A stretch of 32,000 bases of DNA, from contig CAKQHZ010000001.1 of the NCBI GenBank assembly GCA_934246625.1, forward strand, positions 510,001 to 542,000. Direction: 5' to 3'. The notes below the pieces were generated by a model, which searched no databases, was not told where the DNA came from, and was given only the letters and a program-made list of their open reading frames with translations. The translations under genes were made by a program, and so were the position numbers. Source of the DNA: an uncultured Alphaproteobacteria bacterium (lineage in GTDB: Bacteria > Pseudomonadota > Alphaproteobacteria > Rs-D84 > CACZYB01). This document shows positions 2,569 through 32,000 of this stretch, piece after piece (the first letter of the stretch is position 1; every line of letters starts with the position of its first letter).

Positions 2569-3483
2569 TTAGAAGCGGAATAGAAAACCAAGTTTTATGA
2601 TTGGAAAATATCCCTTTCTTATTGAATTTAGTTCATCTTCATATTGTGTTTTTGTATCGTCTAACAATTTTTGAATATCTGTATTTGATGTATCAACTGG
2701 TGCAGTTGCAATAAGATTTGTATAGTTTTCATCAGAGTAAATCTTTATATTTCCAGTTCCAGAAATGTCAGTGGTAATTTCTGGTTTGTCTGTGAATACA
2801 ACACCAGCATCAAGATACATTTTTAATCCCCAGAATAAACCAAAGTCAAAACCTAAACCTGCATAAGGTCCGTTTATATCATAATCAAGTCCAGCTTTTA
2901 AGTTTGCTGTGGCATCAACTTCATAGTAAAGTGTTTGATTGTTGTCTGATTTCATAGAAAATTTTTCGCCAGCAGTTTTTTTCAATTCGCCATTGATTGA
3001 AAAATCACCTGTGTAATATCCAGCAGAAATTCGGAAGTTGCCAAGTGCCCAAGTGTTTCCGAATGGATAAAAATCGATTAAGGCACCAAAGTTTTCACCC
3101 TTTATTTTTGCCTTTATTTCATTATCATCAATTTTAATTGGGTGGTCATCAAGATAATCTTCGATATAGCTATCAAGAGGTTTCCAAGAGTTATAATCCA
3201 AACGAAAACCGAATCTGTTTTTCCAAAAGTTATCTTCGTGTTGTGGAATTCTGTATCCAATTTGTGCATTGGCACCACCAAGAACACCAATACCAACACC
3301 AAGTTGGAAGCCTTTGGCTGAAAAGCCAGAATTTTCTTCCTTTAGTGCATATTTTATTGGAGAATTTTCAGGTTGAGCGATTTCCATTTTTTTTATGGGT
3401 GATGTTCCCTCAAGAGTTTGAGAAAAAGCATTTGCAGAAAGCAATGTTGTTGACAATGCCAATGTGAAAATTTTTTTATTCAT
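2569..3483 (-). CDS. outer-membrane beta-barrel protein
   Basis: The start is trimmed to ATG 3483. The signal peptide is MNKKIFTLALSTTLLSANAFS|Q. The body has alternating aromatic/Gly-rich beta-strand patterns. The C-terminus GFLFRF ends in Phe, a typical OMP signature. Confidence 0.75.
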   Translation of the reverse strand: MNKKIFTLALSTTLLSANAFSQTLEGTSPIKKMEIAQPENSPIKYALKEENSGFSAKGFQLGVGIGVLGGANAQIGYRIPQHEDNFWKNRFGFRLDYNSWKPLDSYIEDYLDDHPIKIDDNEIKAKIKGENFGALIDFYPFGNTWALGNFRISAGYYTGDFSINGELKKTAGEKFSMKSDNNQTLYYEVDATANLKAGLDYDINGPYAGLGFDFGLFWGLKMYLDAGVVFTDKPEITTDISGTGNIKIYSDENYTNLIATAPVDTSNTDIQKLLDDTKTQYEDELNSIRKGYFPIIKLGFLFRF

Positions 3484-3592
3484 ATTTCCCTCGTTTATTT
3501 GTTTATTTATATTTAAGATTTTATACCTATATAATAACAAGGTCAAGATAATAAAATTGTCAAATTATAGACAAAAATAGTAAAAATAATTA

Positions 3593-3621
3593 TTGAATAA
3601 TATTCAAAAATGTGATATATT
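3593..3621 (+). promoter_or_regulatory. sigma70-type promoter with extended -10
   Basis: TTGAAT (3593-3598), a 17-nt spacer, then TATATT (3616-3621). TG at 3613-3614 precedes the -10, giving TGnTATATT. The SD AAAGGAG (3631-3637) and ATG 3645 lie just downstream. Confidence 0.55.
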
Positions 3622-3644
3622 TATTTTTATAAAGGAGATTGTAT

Positions 3645-4336
3645 ATGTTAATGTTTAGACAAAAATCGGGGGGGGTAAAACCACTTCTTTTGAAAAATCT
3701 TTAAATATTGCGAAGTTTGTTCGCATTTCTTCAATTTGTTTATGTTTCAGTTTGTCAACTTTTTACTCCTCGGACGTTTTTGCAAGAAGGGGTAGAAATT
3801 CCAATAAACGTTTTGCAAGTAGTGGAAAAAATTCACGTAGGCAAGCAAAAACTGGAACTAGTAGTGTTTCTTTAAGAAAATCACAAAGTAGAGATATATC
3901 ACTAAGTAGAGATATAGATTCTTATTCTGTTGTAGCAAGTCCTGCTACAACAAGTAGTGTTTCGACAGATAGTTCCGCTGGTAATAATTATTCAAATTTG
4001 CTTGCAACTGTAAAAATGCTTTCAAACAGGATTGATGAACTTGAGAAAAAAATAGAATTAATAGTAGATAAATTAGACATTAGAGTTAATGCGTTGGAAA
4101 ATCGCATTTTTAGTCTTGAAACAGTAAAGTTAACTGATGAACAACAAAAAATAGTTGAGAATTTTAGGCGTAAATATCTACGTGAAGGGTTGGAAAATTT
4201 AACATATGAAGAAGCAAAATCTCAATTACCTTTTTTAACTGATGACTACATTAAAGAATTTATCCAAAAAATTAAGGATCTAAGTTCTATTGCAAGTGTT
4301 GCTTCTTCACTTAAAGAAAGTGAAAGTGCAAGATAA
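3645..4336 (+). CDS. secreted Arg/Ser-rich coiled-coil protein, frameshifted at a poly-G tract (phase-variable candidate, OFF as sequenced)
   Basis: ATG 3645 has a near-ideal SD 7 nt upstream. In the given sequence this frame stops at 3702 after 19 codons. The long ORF (track 3752..4336) is open back to 3659 in another frame. There it encodes a signal-peptide-like segment (KFVRISSICLCFSLSTFYSSDVFA|RRGR) but has no ATG. One extra G in the 8-G run fuses both parts into a 230-aa preprotein. Confidence 0.7.
3668..3675 (+). repeat. G8 homopolymeric tract (candidate slipped-strand mispairing site)
   Basis: tcGGGGGGGGtaaaa. This is the only G/C run of this length I can find in the window. It lies 8 codons into the reading frame that starts at ATG 3645. 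Confidence 0.9.
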
Positions 4337-4352: not shown

Positions 4353-4377
4353 AAAGAGGAGCTGTTAACTCCTCTTT
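4353..4377. terminator. bidirectional rho-independent terminator
   Basis: 9-bp stem aaagaggag / ctcctcttt with a 7-nt loop. An A-run lies on one side and a T-run on the other. It sits between convergent genes. Confidence 0.75.
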
Positions 4378-4386
4378 ATTTTTCTT

Positions 4387-7300
4387 TTAATCTTCCAATT
4401 TGAATTTGCTTAGATATTCAAGGAAACGAGATTTGTAATTGTTTTCGAATGTTCTTTCACGAACGATTTCTTCAAATCTTTCTGGATTTGTATTTTTAAT
4501 TACCTTATATCTTGTTTCTTTTAATAAGTATTCACGAATATCTAATGTTGGAATACGGCTGTCCATTTGAAGTGGAGCTTTGCCCTGTGTGATAAGACGT
4601 GGGTCAAATCTGTAAAGTGGCCAGTGTCCAGATTCAACGGCTGCTTTTGTTTGTGTTGGGCCGTTAACCAAATCAAAACCGTGTGCAATACATGGAGCAT
4701 AAGCAATGATAAGTGATGGACCATCAAAACTTTCTGCTTCGCGGATTGCCTTTACAGCTTGGGCTTCGTTTGCACCCATTGCAATTTTTGCAACATAAGC
4801 ATTTGCATTTGCCATTGCAATTAAACCCAAATCCTTTTTCATAAGTTTTTTACCACCAGTTGCAAATTTTGCACTTGCACCAAATGGAGTTGATTTTGAT
4901 TGTTGTCCACCTGTGTTTGAATATACTTCGGTATCAAGCACAAAGATGTTGACATTTTTACCCATATTTAGAACGTGGTCAAGTCCACCGTATCCAATAT
5001 CGTATGCCCAACCATCACCACCGAAAATCCATAATGATTTTTTGATAAGATAGTCTGAAACAGAAAGAAGCATTTTTGATTTTTCATCTTTTGCAGATGA
5101 AAGTTTTTCCTTTAATGCCTTTACACGATTTCTTTGAGCATCAATACCAGCTTCAGTTGATTGGTCTGCGTTAATGATTTCTTCAACAATGGTATCGCCG
5201 ATTGTTGATGATAATTCCTTTAATAATGTTTTTGCAGTATTTGATAGAGTTTCAACTGCAACTGCTTGACCAAAACCATATTCTGCATTGTCTTCGAATA
5301 ATGAGTTTGACCATGCTGGACCATAACCCTTTTCATTTTTTGCATAAGGGGTTGTTGGTAAATTACCACCATAAATTGATGAACAGCCTGTTGCGTTTGC
5401 AATCATCATTCTGTCACCAAAAAGTTGAGTGATAATTTTAATATATCCAGCTTCACCACATCCAGCACATGCACCAGAGAACTCAAATAATGGTTGCATA
5501 AGTTGAGTGTGCTTTGGAAGAGCAGGGTTTAATTTTGTTCTGTCAATATAAGGAATTGATTCAAAGAATTTAAAGTTTGCACTTTCAACTTTGCCAACTT
5601 CTTGTATTGATTTCATTGTTAATGCCTTTGCAACTTTGTCTGAACCTTCGATAGGTGTTTTTACAGGACAATTTGCAACACAAAGTCCGCAACCTGTGCA
5701 ATCTTCAGGAGATACTTGAACAACATAATTTAAACCTTCGCCAAGTTCCTTTGTCTTGTATTTTGCAACTTTGAATGTGTTTGGAGCATTTTTAAGTTCT
5801 TCGTCTGTCATAACTTTTGTTCTTATTGCACCATGTGGGCAAATGAAAGCACATTTTCCACATTGTAAGCAAGTTTCGTTATTCCATACTGGAACCATTT
5901 CTGCGATTGAACGTTTTTCGTATCTTGAAGTTGCAGTTGGGAATGTGCCATCAGGTGCAAATGCAGATACAGGTAAATCGTTTCCTTCACCAGCAATGAT
6001 TTTTGCATGAAGTCTTTTTACAACTTCGGTTGCATCACTTGAAACAACAGATGGACGAGGACGTGCATTTTGTGATGGTGTTGATGGAACTTCTACCTCA
6101 TAAATATTTGAGATAGCATTATCAACAGCGTTAAAGTTCATTTGAACTATTTCAGGACCCTTTTTCATATAAGTCTTTTCAATAGCTTTTTTAATTGCTT
6201 TGATTGCTTGTTCACTTGGGATTACACTAGCAAGATGGAAGAATGCAGTTTGCATAATTGTATTGATACGTCTTCCCATACCTGAATCACGAGCAACTAT
6301 ATTTGCATTGATTGCATATACTTTTAATTTCTTTGAAATAATTTGTTCTTGAACTTCAAGTGGTAAGTTTTCCCAAAGTTGTTCTTTTTTAAATGGTGAG
6401 TTGATTAAAAGTGTGCCACCTTGTTTGATATTTTTTAACATATCAAGAGTATAGAACAATGGGAAGTGGTGAACTGCCAAAAAGTTTGCAGAACTTATTA
6501 AATATGGAGCTTTGATTTGTTTATCACTAAATCTTAAATGTGAAATTGTGTTTCCACCAGATTTTTTTGAATCGTATTCAAAGTATGCTTGACCATATTT
6601 TGTTGTTTCTGAAGTGATAATTTTAATTGAGTTTTTATTTGCTCCAACTGTTCCATCACTTCCTAAACCATAAAAGAGTGCTGCATAAGTATCTTTGTCA
6701 TCAAGTTCAAAACCATTGTTATAATCAAGTGAAAGGTGTGTTACATCATCATTGATACCAACAGTAAATTCTTGTTTTGGTTCGGATTTGTTTAGTTCGT
6801 CGTAAATAGCCTTTACCATATTTGGAGTAAATTCTTTTGATGAAATACCATAACGACCACCATTTACATAGATGCCACAGCGATTTTCTTCTTTTAATGC
6901 AGAGCATACATCAAGGTATAATGGTTCGCCAAGTGAACCAGGTTCCTTTGTTCTATCAAGAACAGAAATTTTCTTTACACTTGATGGAATTGCATTTACG
7001 AAAGCCTTTGTTGGGAATGGTCTGTAAAGATGAACTTTTACCAATCCAAGTTTTTCGCCATTTGCATTTAAAACTTTTATTGTTTCTTCGATTGTTTCAC
7101 AAGCAGAACCCATTGCAACAATTACTCTGTCTGCATCAGGAGCACCTACATATTCAACAACATCGTAATGTCTTCCTGTAAGTTTTTCGAATTTTTCCAT
7201 TTCTTCCTTTACGATGCCTTCAACCTTGTCATAGTAAGGGTTTGATGCTTCACGTGCTTGGAAGAATACATCAGGGTTTTGAGCAGTTCCGCGGATTGCT

Positions 7301-7941
7301 GGATTTTCAGGTGTTAAAGCATTTTTGCGGAATTCATCGATTTTTGATGTATCAATCATTTTTGATAAAACTTCGTCTGAAACTTTTTCAATTAAGTTGA
7401 TTTCGTGTGAAGTTCTGAAACCATCAAAGAAGTGTAAGAATGGAACACGAGCTCTTAGTGTAGCAGCGTGTGAAATAACAGCTATATCGTGAGCTTCTTG
7501 AACACTGTTTGAAGCAATCATTGCAAATCCAGTTTGACGACATGCCATAACATCGGAATGGTCGCCAAAGATTGATAAAGCGTGAGAAGCAACAGTTCTT
7601 GCACTTACATGCATAACGAATGGGAACAATTCACCAGCGATTTTATACATATTTGGAATCATTAAAAGAAGACCTTGTGATGCGGTAAATGTAGTTGCAA
7701 GTGAACCTGCTTGAAGAGCACCATGAACTGCACCAATAGCACCAGCTTCTGATTGCATAGTTGTTACTTCTGGAACTATACCAAAAAGATTTTGTCTTTT
7801 GGCATTACTCCATACTTCGTAATTTTCTGCCATAGGTGATGATGGAGTGATTGGGTATATAATTGCGAGATCGGTCAATCTGTAAGCAACATCAGATGCA
7901 GCTTCATTTCCATCACACATCAATTTTGTTATATCAGCCAT
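4387..7941 (-). CDS. nifJ: pyruvate:ferredoxin (flavodoxin) oxidoreductase, single-chain PFOR
   Basis: 1184 aa. It carries two 4Fe-4S ferredoxin motifs (CLQCGKCAFICP, CTGCGLCVANCP). The TPP-binding region is GGDGWAYDIGYGGLDHV. The N-terminus has the conserved YPITPSS and the overall architecture is that of PFOR. Confidence 0.95.
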   Translation of the reverse strand: MADITKLMCDGNEAASDVAYRLTDLAIIYPITPSSPMAENYEVWSNAKRQNLFGIVPEVTTMQSEAGAIGAVHGALQAGSLATTFTASQGLLLMIPNMYKIAGELFPFVMHVSARTVASHALSIFGDHSDVMACRQTGFAMIASNSVQEAHDIAVISHAATLRARVPFLHFFDGFRTSHEINLIEKVSDEVLSKMIDTSKIDEFRKNALTPENPAIRGTAQNPDVFFQAREASNPYYDKVEGIVKEEMEKFEKLTGRHYDVVEYVGAPDADRVIVAMGSACETIEETIKVLNANGEKLGLVKVHLYRPFPTKAFVNAIPSSVKKISVLDRTKEPGSLGEPLYLDVCSALKEENRCGIYVNGGRYGISSKEFTPNMVKAIYDELNKSEPKQEFTVGINDDVTHLSLDYNNGFELDDKDTYAALFYGLGSDGTVGANKNSIKIITSETTKYGQAYFEYDSKKSGGNTISHLRFSDKQIKAPYLISSANFLAVHHFPLFYTLDMLKNIKQGGTLLINSPFKKEQLWENLPLEVQEQIISKKLKVYAINANIVARDSGMGRRINTIMQTAFFHLASVIPSEQAIKAIKKAIEKTYMKKGPEIVQMNFNAVDNAISNIYEVEVPSTPSQNARPRPSVVSSDATEVVKRLHAKIIAGEGNDLPVSAFAPDGTFPTATSRYEKRSIAEMVPVWNNETCLQCGKCAFICPHGAIRTKVMTDEELKNAPNTFKVAKYKTKELGEGLNYVVQVSPEDCTGCGLCVANCPVKTPIEGSDKVAKALTMKSIQEVGKVESANFKFFESIPYIDRTKLNPALPKHTQLMQPLFEFSGACAGCGEAGYIKIITQLFGDRMMIANATGCSSIYGGNLPTTPYAKNEKGYGPAWSNSLFEDNAEYGFGQAVAVETLSNTAKTLLKELSSTIGDTIVEEIINADQSTEAGIDAQRNRVKALKEKLSSAKDEKSKMLLSVSDYLIKKSLWIFGGDGWAYDIGYGGLDHVLNMGKNVNIFVLDTEVYSNTGGQQSKSTPFGASAKFATGGKKLMKKDLGLIAMANANAYVAKIAMGANEAQAVKAIREAESFDGPSLIIAYAPCIAHGFDLVNGPTQTKAAVESGHWPLYRFDPRLITQGKAPLQMDSRIPTLDIREYLLKETRYKVIKNTNPERFEEIVRERTFENNYKSRFLEYLSKFKLED

Positions 7942-8263
7942 AATTTTTACCTTTCATTTGTTTTTATTAGCTTTTATTGTTATGTATGATACTAGCTTTG
8001 TCTGCTTGTTTCAAGGGAAAATTTTTCTATATTAAAAAGAGTGTTAAAAAAACTTTACAATATTTTTGTTATATGATATTATCGGAGTCGGTTCACAAAA
8101 AGAATCAAAAAGTAGAATTAAAATATATTGAAAAAGAATAAAATATAATTTTACGGGGTATTTTAAAGTTATATTTTGCTAACATTTTGATATGTATTTA
8201 GTTTTAATTTGGCACTTTGTAGGGGTAAAAAATTCGAAGTGCAAAACGGGAGAAAATAAAACC

Positions 8264-8674
8264 ATGAATAAGATTATGAAAAAATCTATAATGTTGTGTC
8301 TTCTTTGCACAATGTTTTCTGTTCACGCATATTCACAATACGGTGGCTGTAGTTATTCTTCTGGTGGATATTCTGCACCTAAAAAGTCTGCTTTGACTTC
8401 GGTTTTGGAACAGTATTGTGTTCCTGCAAGTGGTAATGATTGTTCAAAGTCTTCTGAATTGGCAGAATATACTTCAAAGGGTTGTTCTTGCAATATTGGA
8501 AGATATTGGAATTCATCTTTGCGTAAATGTAAGGAATGTGAATATGGTAGTTATAAACCAAGTTTAGGTGTTGAAGATTGTATTCAAATCGAATGCCCTG
8601 TGAATACTTTTTTAACAACTGTATCCAATTGTGGAGTTAATGAATATAGAAAAGTTTTACAAGAAACAAAATAA
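8264..8674 (+). CDS. small secreted cysteine-rich protein (CxxC / ephrin-receptor-like module)
   Basis: The start is trimmed to ATG 8264, which has GGGAG upstream. The signal peptide is MNKIMKKSIMLCLLCTMFSVHA|YS. The ~112-aa mature part has about 11 Cys. These include CSCNIGRYW...KCKECEYGSYKPSLGVEDCIQIECPVNTF. Confidence 0.7.
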   Translation: MNKIMKKSIMLCLLCTMFSVHAYSQYGGCSYSSGGYSAPKKSALTSVLEQYCVPASGNDCSKSSELAEYTSKGCSCNIGRYWNSSLRKCKECEYGSYKPSLGVEDCIQIECPVNTFLTTVSNCGVNEYRKVLQETK

Positions 8675-8687
8675 AAGGGAGAAAAAA

Positions 8688-9413
8688 ATGAAATTAAGAC
8701 CATGGAATTTTATAAAAAGTAATTTATTTAAAAAAGGAACTCTTTTAGGGTTATTTACTTTATCAAGTGCGGCTGGTGCACAAACTATTTATCAATGTCA
8801 ACCATGTCCAAATGGATTGGCTTCTCAACCTGGAACAATATCTGCTTCTGGTTGTTTTAATCCAGTAAGTAAATCTGGTTCAAGAGTTATTTTTGATAAT
8901 TCAAGTTCTGGTTGGAGTGGAACTTTACAACCAGGTTGGTATAGAATTAGTTTAAGAGGTAGTAGTGGTTCAGGTGCTGGTGGTGGATGTGGTTATTCAT
9001 CTTGTTATGGTGGTAATGGTGGAGATATGTATTATGTTTTCTATGTTTCTTCAAGTGCATCTGGTGAGTATTCTTGGAATGGTGGTTCACCAAAGTTTGT
9101 TGTAAAAGAAAATGGAAAAGTAAGAACATTTAATTCAACTAGAGGAACAGATGGCTATCAAACAAAATCAAATTGTCGTAAAGTATATTCTACTTATGGT
9201 GATTACTTGGGGGAACAATGTGATTACAGTTGTACCAATGGAACAAATGGTTCATCAACAGTGGTGTATGGAAGTGAAAAATCAAATTGTCATAAAGTAA
9301 AGACTACTTATGGTAGTTATGATGTTTGTGGTTACAATGTAAATGAAAGTGAAAAATTTACATCAAATGTTGATGCAAAATCTTATGCTGGTGGTAAATT
9401 AACTAGATTATAA
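8688..9413 (+). CDS. secreted Cys/Gly/Ser-rich protein (CxxC module + glycine-rich domain + internal repeat)
   Basis: The start is trimmed to ATG 8688, which has GGGAG upstream. The signal peptide is ...GLFTLSSAAGA|QT. It is followed by YQCQPCPNGLASQPGTISASGC and then GWYRISLRGSSGSGAGGGCGYSSCYGGNGGDMYYVFYV. Two copies of KSNC[RH]KVxxTYGxY follow. Confidence 0.7.
   Translation: MKLRPWNFIKSNLFKKGTLLGLFTLSSAAGAQTIYQCQPCPNGLASQPGTISASGCFNPVSKSGSRVIFDNSSSGWSGTLQPGWYRISLRGSSGSGAGGGCGYSSCYGGNGGDMYYVFYVSSSASGEYSWNGGSPKFVVKENGKVRTFNSTRGTDGYQTKSNCRKVYSTYGDYLGEQCDYSCTNGTNGSSTVVYGSEKSNCHKVKTTYGSYDVCGYNVNESEKFTSNVDAKSYAGGKLTRL
9165..9209 (+). repeat. intragenic direct repeat, copy 1
   Basis: aaatcaaattgtcgtaaagta...acttatggtgattac. 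It recurs 114 nt (38 codons) downstream with few substitutions. Confidence 0.8.
9279..9323 (+). repeat. intragenic direct repeat, copy 2
   Basis: aaatcaaattgtcataaagta...acttatggtagttat. It is in frame with copy 1. Confidence 0.8.
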
Positions 9414-31597: not shown

Positions 31598-32000
31598 ATG
31601 ATAAAATTTAGATTTTGTAAATATTTATTTGTATTTTTTGTTTTTTTATCAATAATTTCAGATGTAAATTCTGCACCAAGAAGAAATTCAAAGAGAGCAA
31701 GTGTTGTTGGAAAAAATAATTCAAAAAGAGCTGCAACAACTTCTCGACGAGATAGTCGTAGAAATTCCAAACGTGCTGCTGTAACAGGTCGTGGAAAAGC
31801 CTCTAATTTAAGAGTTTTAAATTCAAATGTTTCAACTAAGACAAATGTAGATACTTCTGCTTCTGTTAAAATATCAGATACGGATGAAAAATATGATAAA
31901 ATTTTAAGTGAAATTAATTTTTTGAAACAAAGTGTTTCTACTTATGAGAGTAAATTTTCTGAATATGATAATAAACTTAAAGAGGCGAATACAAAAATTT
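31598..32000 (+). CDS. secreted Arg/Ser/Lys-rich coiled-coil protein, paralog of the 3645..4336 gene (partial, runs off the window)
   Basis: The ORF is absent from the track because there is no stop within the window. Hand translation from ATG 31598 gives MIKFRFCKYLFVFFVFLSIISDVNSA|PRRNSKRASVVGKNNSKRAATTSRRDSRRNSKRAAV...DEKYDKILSEINFLKQSVSTYESKFSEYDNKLKEANTKI. The track's minus-strand ORF 31564..31770 is its antisense shadow. Confidence 0.7.
   Translation, partial: MIKFRFCKYLFVFFVFLSIISDVNSAPRRNSKRASVVGKNNSKRAATTSRRDSRRNSKRAAVTGRGKASNLRVLNSNVSTKTNVDTSASVKISDTDEKYDKILSEINFLKQSVSTYESKFSEYDNKLKEANTKI

Follow-up and report, generated by a model that had tools for sequence, protein, structure and literature searches.

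The window analysed here is a stretch of 32,000 nucleotides from an uncultured Alphaproteobacteria bacterium (GenBank assembly GCA_934246625.1, contig CAKQHZ010000001.1, positions 510,001 to 542,000), and the locus in question is a gene for a putative secreted protein that carries a run of eight guanines near its 5′ end. This poly-G tract, G8, was read directly from the window sequence at 3668-3675 on the + strand, seven codons past an ATG at 3645 and five codons past a second ATG at 3651 in the same frame. The leader start (3645-3667, + strand) consists of the two ATGs and then TTTAGACAAAAATC up to the tract, and encodes the peptide MLMFRQKS. A Shine-Dalgarno (SD) sequence, AAAGGAG, is located at 3631-3637 on the + strand, 7 nt before ATG 3645. 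Upstream of it, a scan recovered the extended -10 promoter that the original prediction had proposed, as a candidate site at 3593-3621 (+ strand) with a -35 element TTGAAT at 3593-3598, a 17-nt spacer, a TG at 3613-3614 and a -10 element TATATT at 3616-3621. This promoter-like site has 9 of 12 consensus matches together with the TG, and is a consensus match only.

We found that at G8 the ATG is out of frame with the body of the gene. The frame from ATG 3645 reads MLMFRQKSGGVKPLLLKNL and is ended after 19 codons by a TAA at 3702-3704 (+ strand). The 194-aa open reading frame (ORF) that contains the gene body extends from TTG 3752 to 4336 and has neither an ATG nor a GTG of its own. Followed upstream, its frame stays open as far as 3659, directly 3′ of a TAG at 3656-3658, and this upstream part encodes KTTSFEKSLNIAKFVRISSICLCFSLSTFYSSDVFA followed by RR. 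Read up to and across the cleavage site, the body frame upstream of TTG 3752 gives ..GGGKTTSFEKSLNIAKFVRISSICLCFSLSTFYSSDVFA and then RRGRNS. Since TTG 3752 sits in the middle of the hydrophobic core and lacks an SD, it is not a credible start. Every sequence-level statement of the original prediction on the tract, start, SD, frame, stop and ORF was confirmed.

The rest of the signal-peptide coding region occupies 3676-3784 (+ strand), with predicted cleavage after VFA, and the mature protein coding region occupies 3785-4336 (+ strand; 183 aa plus stop). Charge and hydrophobicity analysis of the putative signal peptide gave an n-region of +6/-1, an uncharged h-region of 16 residues with a maximum Kyte-Doolittle value of 2.0, and the VFA cleavage motif. 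The leader thus looks like a Sec signal peptide. When the tract length was changed in silico, G9 gave a preprotein of 230 aa and G6 one of 229 aa, in agreement with the proposal that one extra G or two fewer would repair the gene. In both cases the tract reads as Gly-Gly(-Gly) within the n-region. Tracts of G5, G7, G8, G10 and G11 truncated the product to 10-20 codons. Two features expected of a simple-sequence-repeat (SSR) contingency locus are therefore seen in the window itself, namely a G/C homopolymer of at least about 7 in the 5′ coding region and toggling between a full-length and a truncated frame as the number of G's changes.

The window is AT-rich (about 32% G+C), and the G8 tract is its sole G/C run of at least 6; the only further G/C run of at least 5 in the 32 kb is a single G5 at 9209. 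When the window was shuffled 100 times with dinucleotides preserved, a G8 turned up in 5 of the shuffles. On its own the tract is thus noteworthy without being conclusive, and the original statement that an 8-G run is very unlikely by chance was too strong, although its singularity within the 32 kb stands.

We searched with the 194-aa protein and found no relatives in GTDB species representatives or in JGI metagenomes. Copies of the locus were gathered instead by using the adjacent gene for pyruvate:ferredoxin oxidoreductase (PFOR) as an anchor and by exact-protein look-ups. The closest species-representative genomes by PFOR are uncultured gut metagenome-assembled genomes (MAGs) with PFOR identities of 81-93%, deposited as 'Alphaproteobacteria bacterium', 'uncultured proteobacterium' or 'bacterium' and obtained from bank vole, rumen, water-deer rectum and similar sources. 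The exact-protein look-ups placed the locus in many human-gut assemblies, including Hadza samples. In all we compared 22 copies, the window and 21 from independent ENA/Logan gut assemblies.

In all 22 copies about 45 nt before the tract, including the -10, the SD and the ATGs, and 23 nt after it are essentially identical; the SD is kept in 22/22 and the promoter-like site is identical in nearly all. The tract between these flanks varies in length. Nine copies have G8 (window, L001, L022-26, L030, L031), eight have G9 (L002, L016, L017, L019-21, L034, L032), four have G10 (L027-29, L033), and one (L018) has a substitution-interrupted tract, A+G5 (AG5), that is exactly in frame. L032, with G9, is out of frame owing to two additional 1-nt indels nearby. 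About 12 haplotypes can be distinguished among the copies over 1.2 kb, half of them (6) in frame and the other 6 out of frame. A tract that is polymorphic among close relatives while its flanks are conserved is a further feature of SSR contingency loci, and these lengths at the orthologous locus support the phase-variation reading of the original prediction, which a lack of any length polymorphism would have contradicted. L018 and L019 have ATA in place of the first ATG, and their called proteins begin with MFRQKS, at the second ATG. Therefore ATG 3651 can serve as a start, and either ATG is usable.

We considered whether the true tract is G9 everywhere, with G8 and G10 arising from sequencing or assembly errors, as homopolymers are error-prone in some technologies. 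However, an identical haplotype has the same tract length in every sample in which it occurs (five contigs with G8, three with G10, and several pairs), even though the assemblers differed among same-haplotype copies (MEGAHIT k141, SPAdes NODE, Logan). Haplotypes about 1% apart differ in tract length. Lengths that are reproducible within a haplotype across samples argue against random homopolymer error, since errors would not track haplotype. The interrupted AG5 allele is exactly in frame, and sister species vary in the length of their own tract. We regard an artefact of this kind as extremely improbable. Judged from the assembled sequences, tract length behaves as a heritable strain-level character that changes faster than its flanks.

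Evidence for both states of the gene came from the protein database, in which we found 43 distinct versions of the switched protein. Fifteen are fused forms (ON), of which 12 read QKSGGGK and 3 read QKSGGK, and the other 28 are stubs (OFF) that start MSTFYSS. The 43 versions contain 38 distinct gene bodies, and five identical bodies occur in both states (P0006/P0015, P0002/P0032, P0008/P0038, P0011/P0042 and P0039/P0041). P0006 is the window's own ORF, and P0015 is, letter for letter, the 230-aa protein predicted for G9, so that the repaired protein first proposed from the window exists verbatim elsewhere. Given how diverse the bodies are, identity between two of them implies that they share a recent ancestor. 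Secondary stops and frameshifts are absent from all 28 OFF variants; the full-length body is retained, the ORF is intact in each of the 43 versions, and all length differences among bodies are in frame (multiples of 3). The same allele is thus found ON and OFF, with OFF alleles otherwise intact, as is characteristic of SSR contingency loci.

Gene callers annotate the OFF copies as a protein of 186-200 aa that starts at a TTG inside the hydrophobic core of the signal peptide. Such mis-started stubs make up about two-thirds of the database entries (P0006 and 27 others). A practical warning follows for users of these annotations, in which callers render two-thirds of the copies as a leaderless 194-aa stub. 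Initiation downstream of the tract in orthologues was the other circumstance that would have told against the original prediction. There is no ATG, GTG or TTG between the tract and the middle of the signal peptide, and the sister species described below keep their SD and ATG upstream of their own tract.

Two sister species (L003, L004), with PFOR 92-93% identical to that of the window, carry a shorter gene of about 105 aa at the same intergenic site. Its 5′ end reads AAAGGAG-N5-7-ATGAGTAAATTAGACAAA-N8-G9-TAATT, followed by a signal peptide (..SSGAFA, cleaved before YTKQED) with which the signal-peptide region of the window gene aligns. The leader is of the form SD-ATG-..TTAGACAAA..-G9-TAA, and the window and both sister species have in common the leader SD-ATG-TAGACAAA-Gn-TAA. 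The C-terminal domains of this gene product and of the window protein are homologous (ALPFMSDD vs QLPFLTDD; BLASTP E=6e-5). In the MAGs of L003 and L004 the frame is broken at G9 and would be restored by G8 or G11. For this type of orthologue the protein database holds both fused forms (P0048 and P0050, MSKFDKPLWGGVI..) and stubs (P0051-54). In L005, L006 and L013 the site is empty and the switched gene is absent.

A scan of metagenome contigs for the leader pattern gave mostly unrelated genes, which we rejected as chance matches. It also returned a more distant AT-rich group with tracts of G10 (L036 and L051) or G9 (L047, L053 and L044), in which the leader reads SD-ATG-(G/A)TTAGACAAAATAGACGAAT-Gn-TAAATCCC. 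When repaired, these genes encode M(V/I)RQNRRIGGGKSL.., a signal peptide, RRSSKRSASS.. and then a coiled coil and further domains. None of the five assembled copies is in frame, and the known proteins of this group are all leaderless stubs; a protein search with the L047 type returned leaderless stubs alone, with no ON form documented. BLASTP gave no support for homology between the window protein and the L047-type protein beyond the leader (E=2.7), and we do not treat the two as orthologues; the C-terminal Gly-rich domain of L047 weakly resembles the secreted protein encoded at 8688-9410 of the window (E=0.001). Across these AT-rich loci every G/C run of at least 8 is the leader tract. The switch appears from these comparisons to be older than the species.

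In an alignment of six leaders the TTG of the -35, parts of the -10, the SD region, the ATG, TAGAC-AA, the tract and the TAA that follows it are invariant. The TTG and -10 columns of the promoter-like site are kept across three gene types, and SD equivalents (AAGGAG/AAAGGA) precede the ATG in L003, L004, L036, L044 and L047. Both the post-tract TAA (3676-3678 in the window) and the pre-tract TAGAC-AA are invariant in the six leaders and three gene types (L003, L004, L036, L044 and L047 with the window). The ON-state frames differ at these motifs, with GGT AAA in the window vs GTA ATT in L003 and F-R-Q-K vs L-D-K, and the conservation of TAA and TAGAC-AA is not explained by peptide conservation. 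The post-tract TAA gives immediate termination in one of the OFF frames.

These observations also bear on recoding, in which the polymerase or ribosome slips on the G run, or the ribosome makes a +1 shift at GGG-TAA, so that protein is made from 'OFF' DNA and variation in DNA length is secondary. By inspection, the frame would be regained by slipping -1 on G8 or +1 at G9-TAA, and recoding would fit both the invariance of the TAA in leaders whose ON-state frames differ and the finding that all seven DNA copies from other species and most copies in the window's species are out of frame. However, in-frame alleles are common (15/43 sequences and 6/12 haplotypes), which is unexpected if one fixed recoding length were required, and OFF lengths on both sides (G8 and G10) would need opposite shifts. 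Instead of a single out-of-frame arrangement fixed in all relatives, in-frame and both out-of-frame kinds coexist. We found no stimulatory RNA structure or known recoding element in the leader, which folds no better than shuffles (z=-0.75); a scan of Rfam gave no family in the leader, and its sub-threshold matches were confined to the terminator hairpin downstream of the gene. Efficient transcriptional slippage is documented mainly for A/T runs. On this evidence recoding has very little probability in our judgement.

We next consider the protein that the switch would control. AlphaFold modelled the 183-aa mature protein with a mean pLDDT of 67, with residues 1-62 below 50 and helices at 64-109, 118-134, 141-147 and 153-182 (pLDDT 85-94). 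The mature protein is thus predicted to begin with some 62 residues of disordered, basic sequence rich in Ser and Thr, to continue in a 46-residue helix and to end in a small, helical C-terminal domain, which carries an LPF(L/M)(T/S)D motif. There was no significant match to the mature protein in Pfam, NCBIfam or, by Foldseek of the AlphaFold model, PDB, and an exhaustive profile search of 1.84 billion representatives returned only the protein's own two clusters. An in-frame 18-bp tandem repeat, detected with TRF at 3880-3916 (+ strand; 2.1 copies), encodes the unit S[QL]SRDI. Two units are present in 34 alleles, one in 8 and none in 1, so that the repeat is a second, in-frame polymorphism of the slippage type in the switched gene.

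Diversity and selection were measured over 10-12 haplotypes. Nucleotide diversity (pi) was 0.060 in the mature protein region, and this value for the body compares with 0.004-0.015 in the flanks: 0.005 in PFOR, 0.015 in the neighbouring outer-membrane-protein-like (OMP-like) gene and 0.004-0.009 in intergenic DNA. The ratio of nonsynonymous to synonymous polymorphism (pN/pS) was 1.11 for the gene body from STFYS to the stop, with 0.48 in the N-terminal part, 1.21 in the coiled coil and 2.33 in the C-terminal domain, vs 0.09 in PFOR and 0.17 in the OMP-like gene. The cargo is, on these measures, probably a hypervariable secreted or surface protein under diversifying selection. A hypervariable gene whose ORF is always intact fits an exposed antigen or receptor under such selection rather than a decaying pseudogene.

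Non-adaptive decay would nevertheless account for part of the data. Here the poly-G tract would be a mutational hot spot in a dispensable, fast-evolving gene, and the OFF alleles would be pseudogenes nearing loss. Consistent with this, pN/pS of the body is about 1, most alleles are OFF, L005, L006 and L013 lack the gene at this site, and the protein family is tiny, with 2 clusters in 1.84 billion representatives. Decay would not, however, be expected to leave every one of the 28 OFF variants free of a secondary stop or frameshift, with body indels all in multiples of 3, nor to preserve the SD, ATG and leader perfectly in OFF copies. Bodies identical to one another are found ON as well as OFF, and the tract and leader are kept at the same position across species in which the cargo has diverged or changed. 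Nor do pN/pS values of 2.3 for the C-terminal domain and 0.48 for the N-terminal part amount to uniform neutrality. We therefore consider decay improbable.

Our data make it very likely that the locus is an SSR contingency locus that acts as a translational phase-variation switch, with the window copy in the OFF state. Every feature of such a locus that can be examined in sequence appears to be present. We infer that slippage is the mechanism, that the change is reversible within a population, that the product is exported and that a selective agent acts on it. The gene would have a promoter of its own, and its translation would begin at ATG 3645 or 3651. The poly-G tract would lie about eight codons in, inside the part of the signal peptide that is later cleaved, and slipped-strand mispairing in replication would add or remove G's. 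With G9 (or G6 or G12) the ATG would be in frame with the signal peptide and mature protein, which would be made and exported (ON). With G8 or G10 (or G7 or G11) translation would stop after 10-19 codons and there would be no exported protein (OFF). As the tract contributes nothing but Gly to the leader that is cleaved off, in-frame changes of length would leave the mature protein unaltered. Since the cargo is hypervariable and diversifying selection probably acts on it, the switch would allow sub-populations either to display the protein or to conceal it, for instance from host antibody or phage. The mechanism would be a known one, here in an uncultured gut lineage and on an orphan, hypervariable, putative secreted protein.

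Several observations weigh against a phase-variation switch. About 63% of the sequences in the window's species are OFF, and so are all seven DNA copies from other species (L003, L004, L036, L044, L047, L051 and L053). The L047 type is represented by stubs only, which is compatible with neutral drift of the tract or with a different route of expression. Composition alone yields a G8 in 5% of shuffles, the h-region of the signal peptide is just moderately hydrophobic (maximum Kyte-Doolittle 2.0), and a pN/pS near 1 is equally expected from relaxed constraint. Among the loci compared, no copies with zero flanking single-nucleotide differences differ in tract length. It is for this reason that our argument for switching is drawn from the identical protein bodies and not from clonal DNA.

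The recurrence of the leader on different genes raises the question of whether the promoter, SD, ATG, TAGACAAA, Gn, TAA and signal-peptide n-region together form a portable switch cassette used on unrelated secreted cargos of this gut lineage. The cargos include a 56-aa helical domain (L003 and L004), a basic region and coiled coil with the same domain (window), a Gly-rich domain (L036 and L047) and another protein (L044). Support comes from the TAGACAAA and post-tract TAA motifs, which are kept though read in different frames, and from a tract-less paralog at 31598 that starts where the window gene has an ATT. We consider a portable cassette possible but rather doubtful. If it were true, the target of selection would be the DNA switch, serving as an evolvability module, rather than the peptide.

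The tract-less relative occupies 31598-32000 and continues past the window end. It begins at the signal peptide (MIKFRFCKYLFVFF..SDVNSA, cleaved before PRRNSKRASVVGKN), and its start aligns with ..N-I(ATT)-A-K-F-V-R-I.. of the switched gene. It had been put forward as a paralog aligning across the tract junction; we found that it does align (SDV..RRNS-KR), but weakly (BLASTP E=0.029, 27% identity over 109 aa). Next to PFOR, at 6563-8056, L008 encodes a 498-aa secreted protein with a similar KPKRNSGKKARASAVAK motif. The sequences suggest that an ordinary gene for a secreted protein gained the tract-bearing leader as an extension at its 5′ end.

The switched gene is monocistronic. A bidirectional intrinsic-terminator hairpin at 4353-4377 (both strands), found by scan, separates it from the convergent PFOR gene at 4387-7941 (- strand). 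Because this terminator is common to both genes, the switch would control the switched gene only. The divergent neighbour at 2569-3546 (- strand) is the conserved OMP-like gene, which has a weak match to the CarO porin (E=8e-4) far below the cut-off. This gene adjoins the PFOR region in all close relatives, with or without the switched gene in between.

Cys-/Gly-rich secreted proteins with CxPCPxG motifs and a match to Ephrin_rec_like repeats are encoded near the locus, at 8192-8674 and 8688-9413 in the window and at 11085-11612 in L003, 8394-9548 in L004 and about 10720-11510 in L005 and L013. There is weak similarity (E=0.001) between the Gly-rich domain of these proteins and the cargo of the L047-type gene with its tract. 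A split gene was suspected at 8192-9413 and rejected, as these are two separate genes, each with its own start.

Two further groups of sequences came from the scan for the leader pattern. An unrelated DNA methyltransferase with a DPPY motif (..DVWKLGDHVLLCGNCTEKPYLDKIFGGG-VTQKVDLLLTDPPYG), on human-gut contigs of about 60% GC (L037, L038, L041, L042, L050, L056, L057, L061-L063, L067, L068, L071, L072 and L076), has an internal poly-G tract that across assemblies is G8 (1), G9 (7), G10 (5), G11 (1) or G12 (1), with only G10 in frame. It matched the leader pattern by chance and is itself a candidate phase-variable, phasevarion-like gene. In the second group, on contigs of about 50% GC (L040, L048, L049, L052, L059, L060, L064, L065, L075, L077 and L078), an unrelated gene (..LDKNRGG, then stop) has at its 3′ end the string TTAGACAAAAATC-G8/G9-TAA, the same as in the window leader. 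This tract is again length-polymorphic, G8 or G9 by assembly, and the likeness to the window leader is probably a chance similarity.

Homopolymer contingency loci are textbook material in a few cultured pathogens, and work on phase variation in gut commensals has centred mainly on invertible promoters. Here a likely poly-G ON/OFF locus was recognised from public assemblies alone in an uncultured lineage of the human and animal gut. Its state differs between people's samples, which would make the protein a likely target of host antibody or phage pressure. The tract also offers a concrete marker, countable in reads, for selection in vivo in metagenomes.

The locus may be compared with four known systems. 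The opa genes of Neisseria carry CTCTT repeats in the signal-peptide coding region. As in Opa, the repeat at our locus lies in a leader predicted to be cleaved, changes of frame would switch expression, in-frame changes of length would spare the mature protein, and the cargo is hypervariable, antigenically so in Opa. Unlike Opa, the repeat here is a homopolymer and not a pentanucleotide, the product is a disordered and helical putative secreted protein and not a β-barrel outer-membrane adhesin, and there is no sequence relationship.

The mechanism would be that of the intragenic poly-G/C contingency genes (the phasome) of Campylobacter jejuni and Helicobacter pylori (PMC6321876). In common with these the window locus has a G run of at least 8 near the coding 5′ end in an AT-rich, host-associated bacterium, a tract length that is polymorphic between strains, an ON/OFF frameshift that would arise by replication slippage, and a cargo predicted to be at the surface or secreted (PMC6321876). 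It differs in coming from uncultured gut MAGs deposited as Alphaproteobacteria, in having one such tract in 32 kb, and in a cargo that has no homology to any characterised protein.

Within the human gut, a G-tract switch operating by replication slippage controls sortase pili in Bifidobacterium breve (PMC9187656). There, as proposed for the window locus, a poly-G tract acts as an ON/OFF slippage switch, in this case on a surface structure of a commensal. B. breve, however, is a high-GC Gram-positive, the switch acts on a pilus gene cluster and the proof came from experiments with depth sequencing (PMC9187656), whereas the evidence here comes from assemblies. Among alphaproteobacteria, Bartonella is a pathogen with different genes from those of the window lineage. 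Like the lineage studied here, it is a host-associated alphaproteobacterium with SSR contingency loci (PMC11466379).

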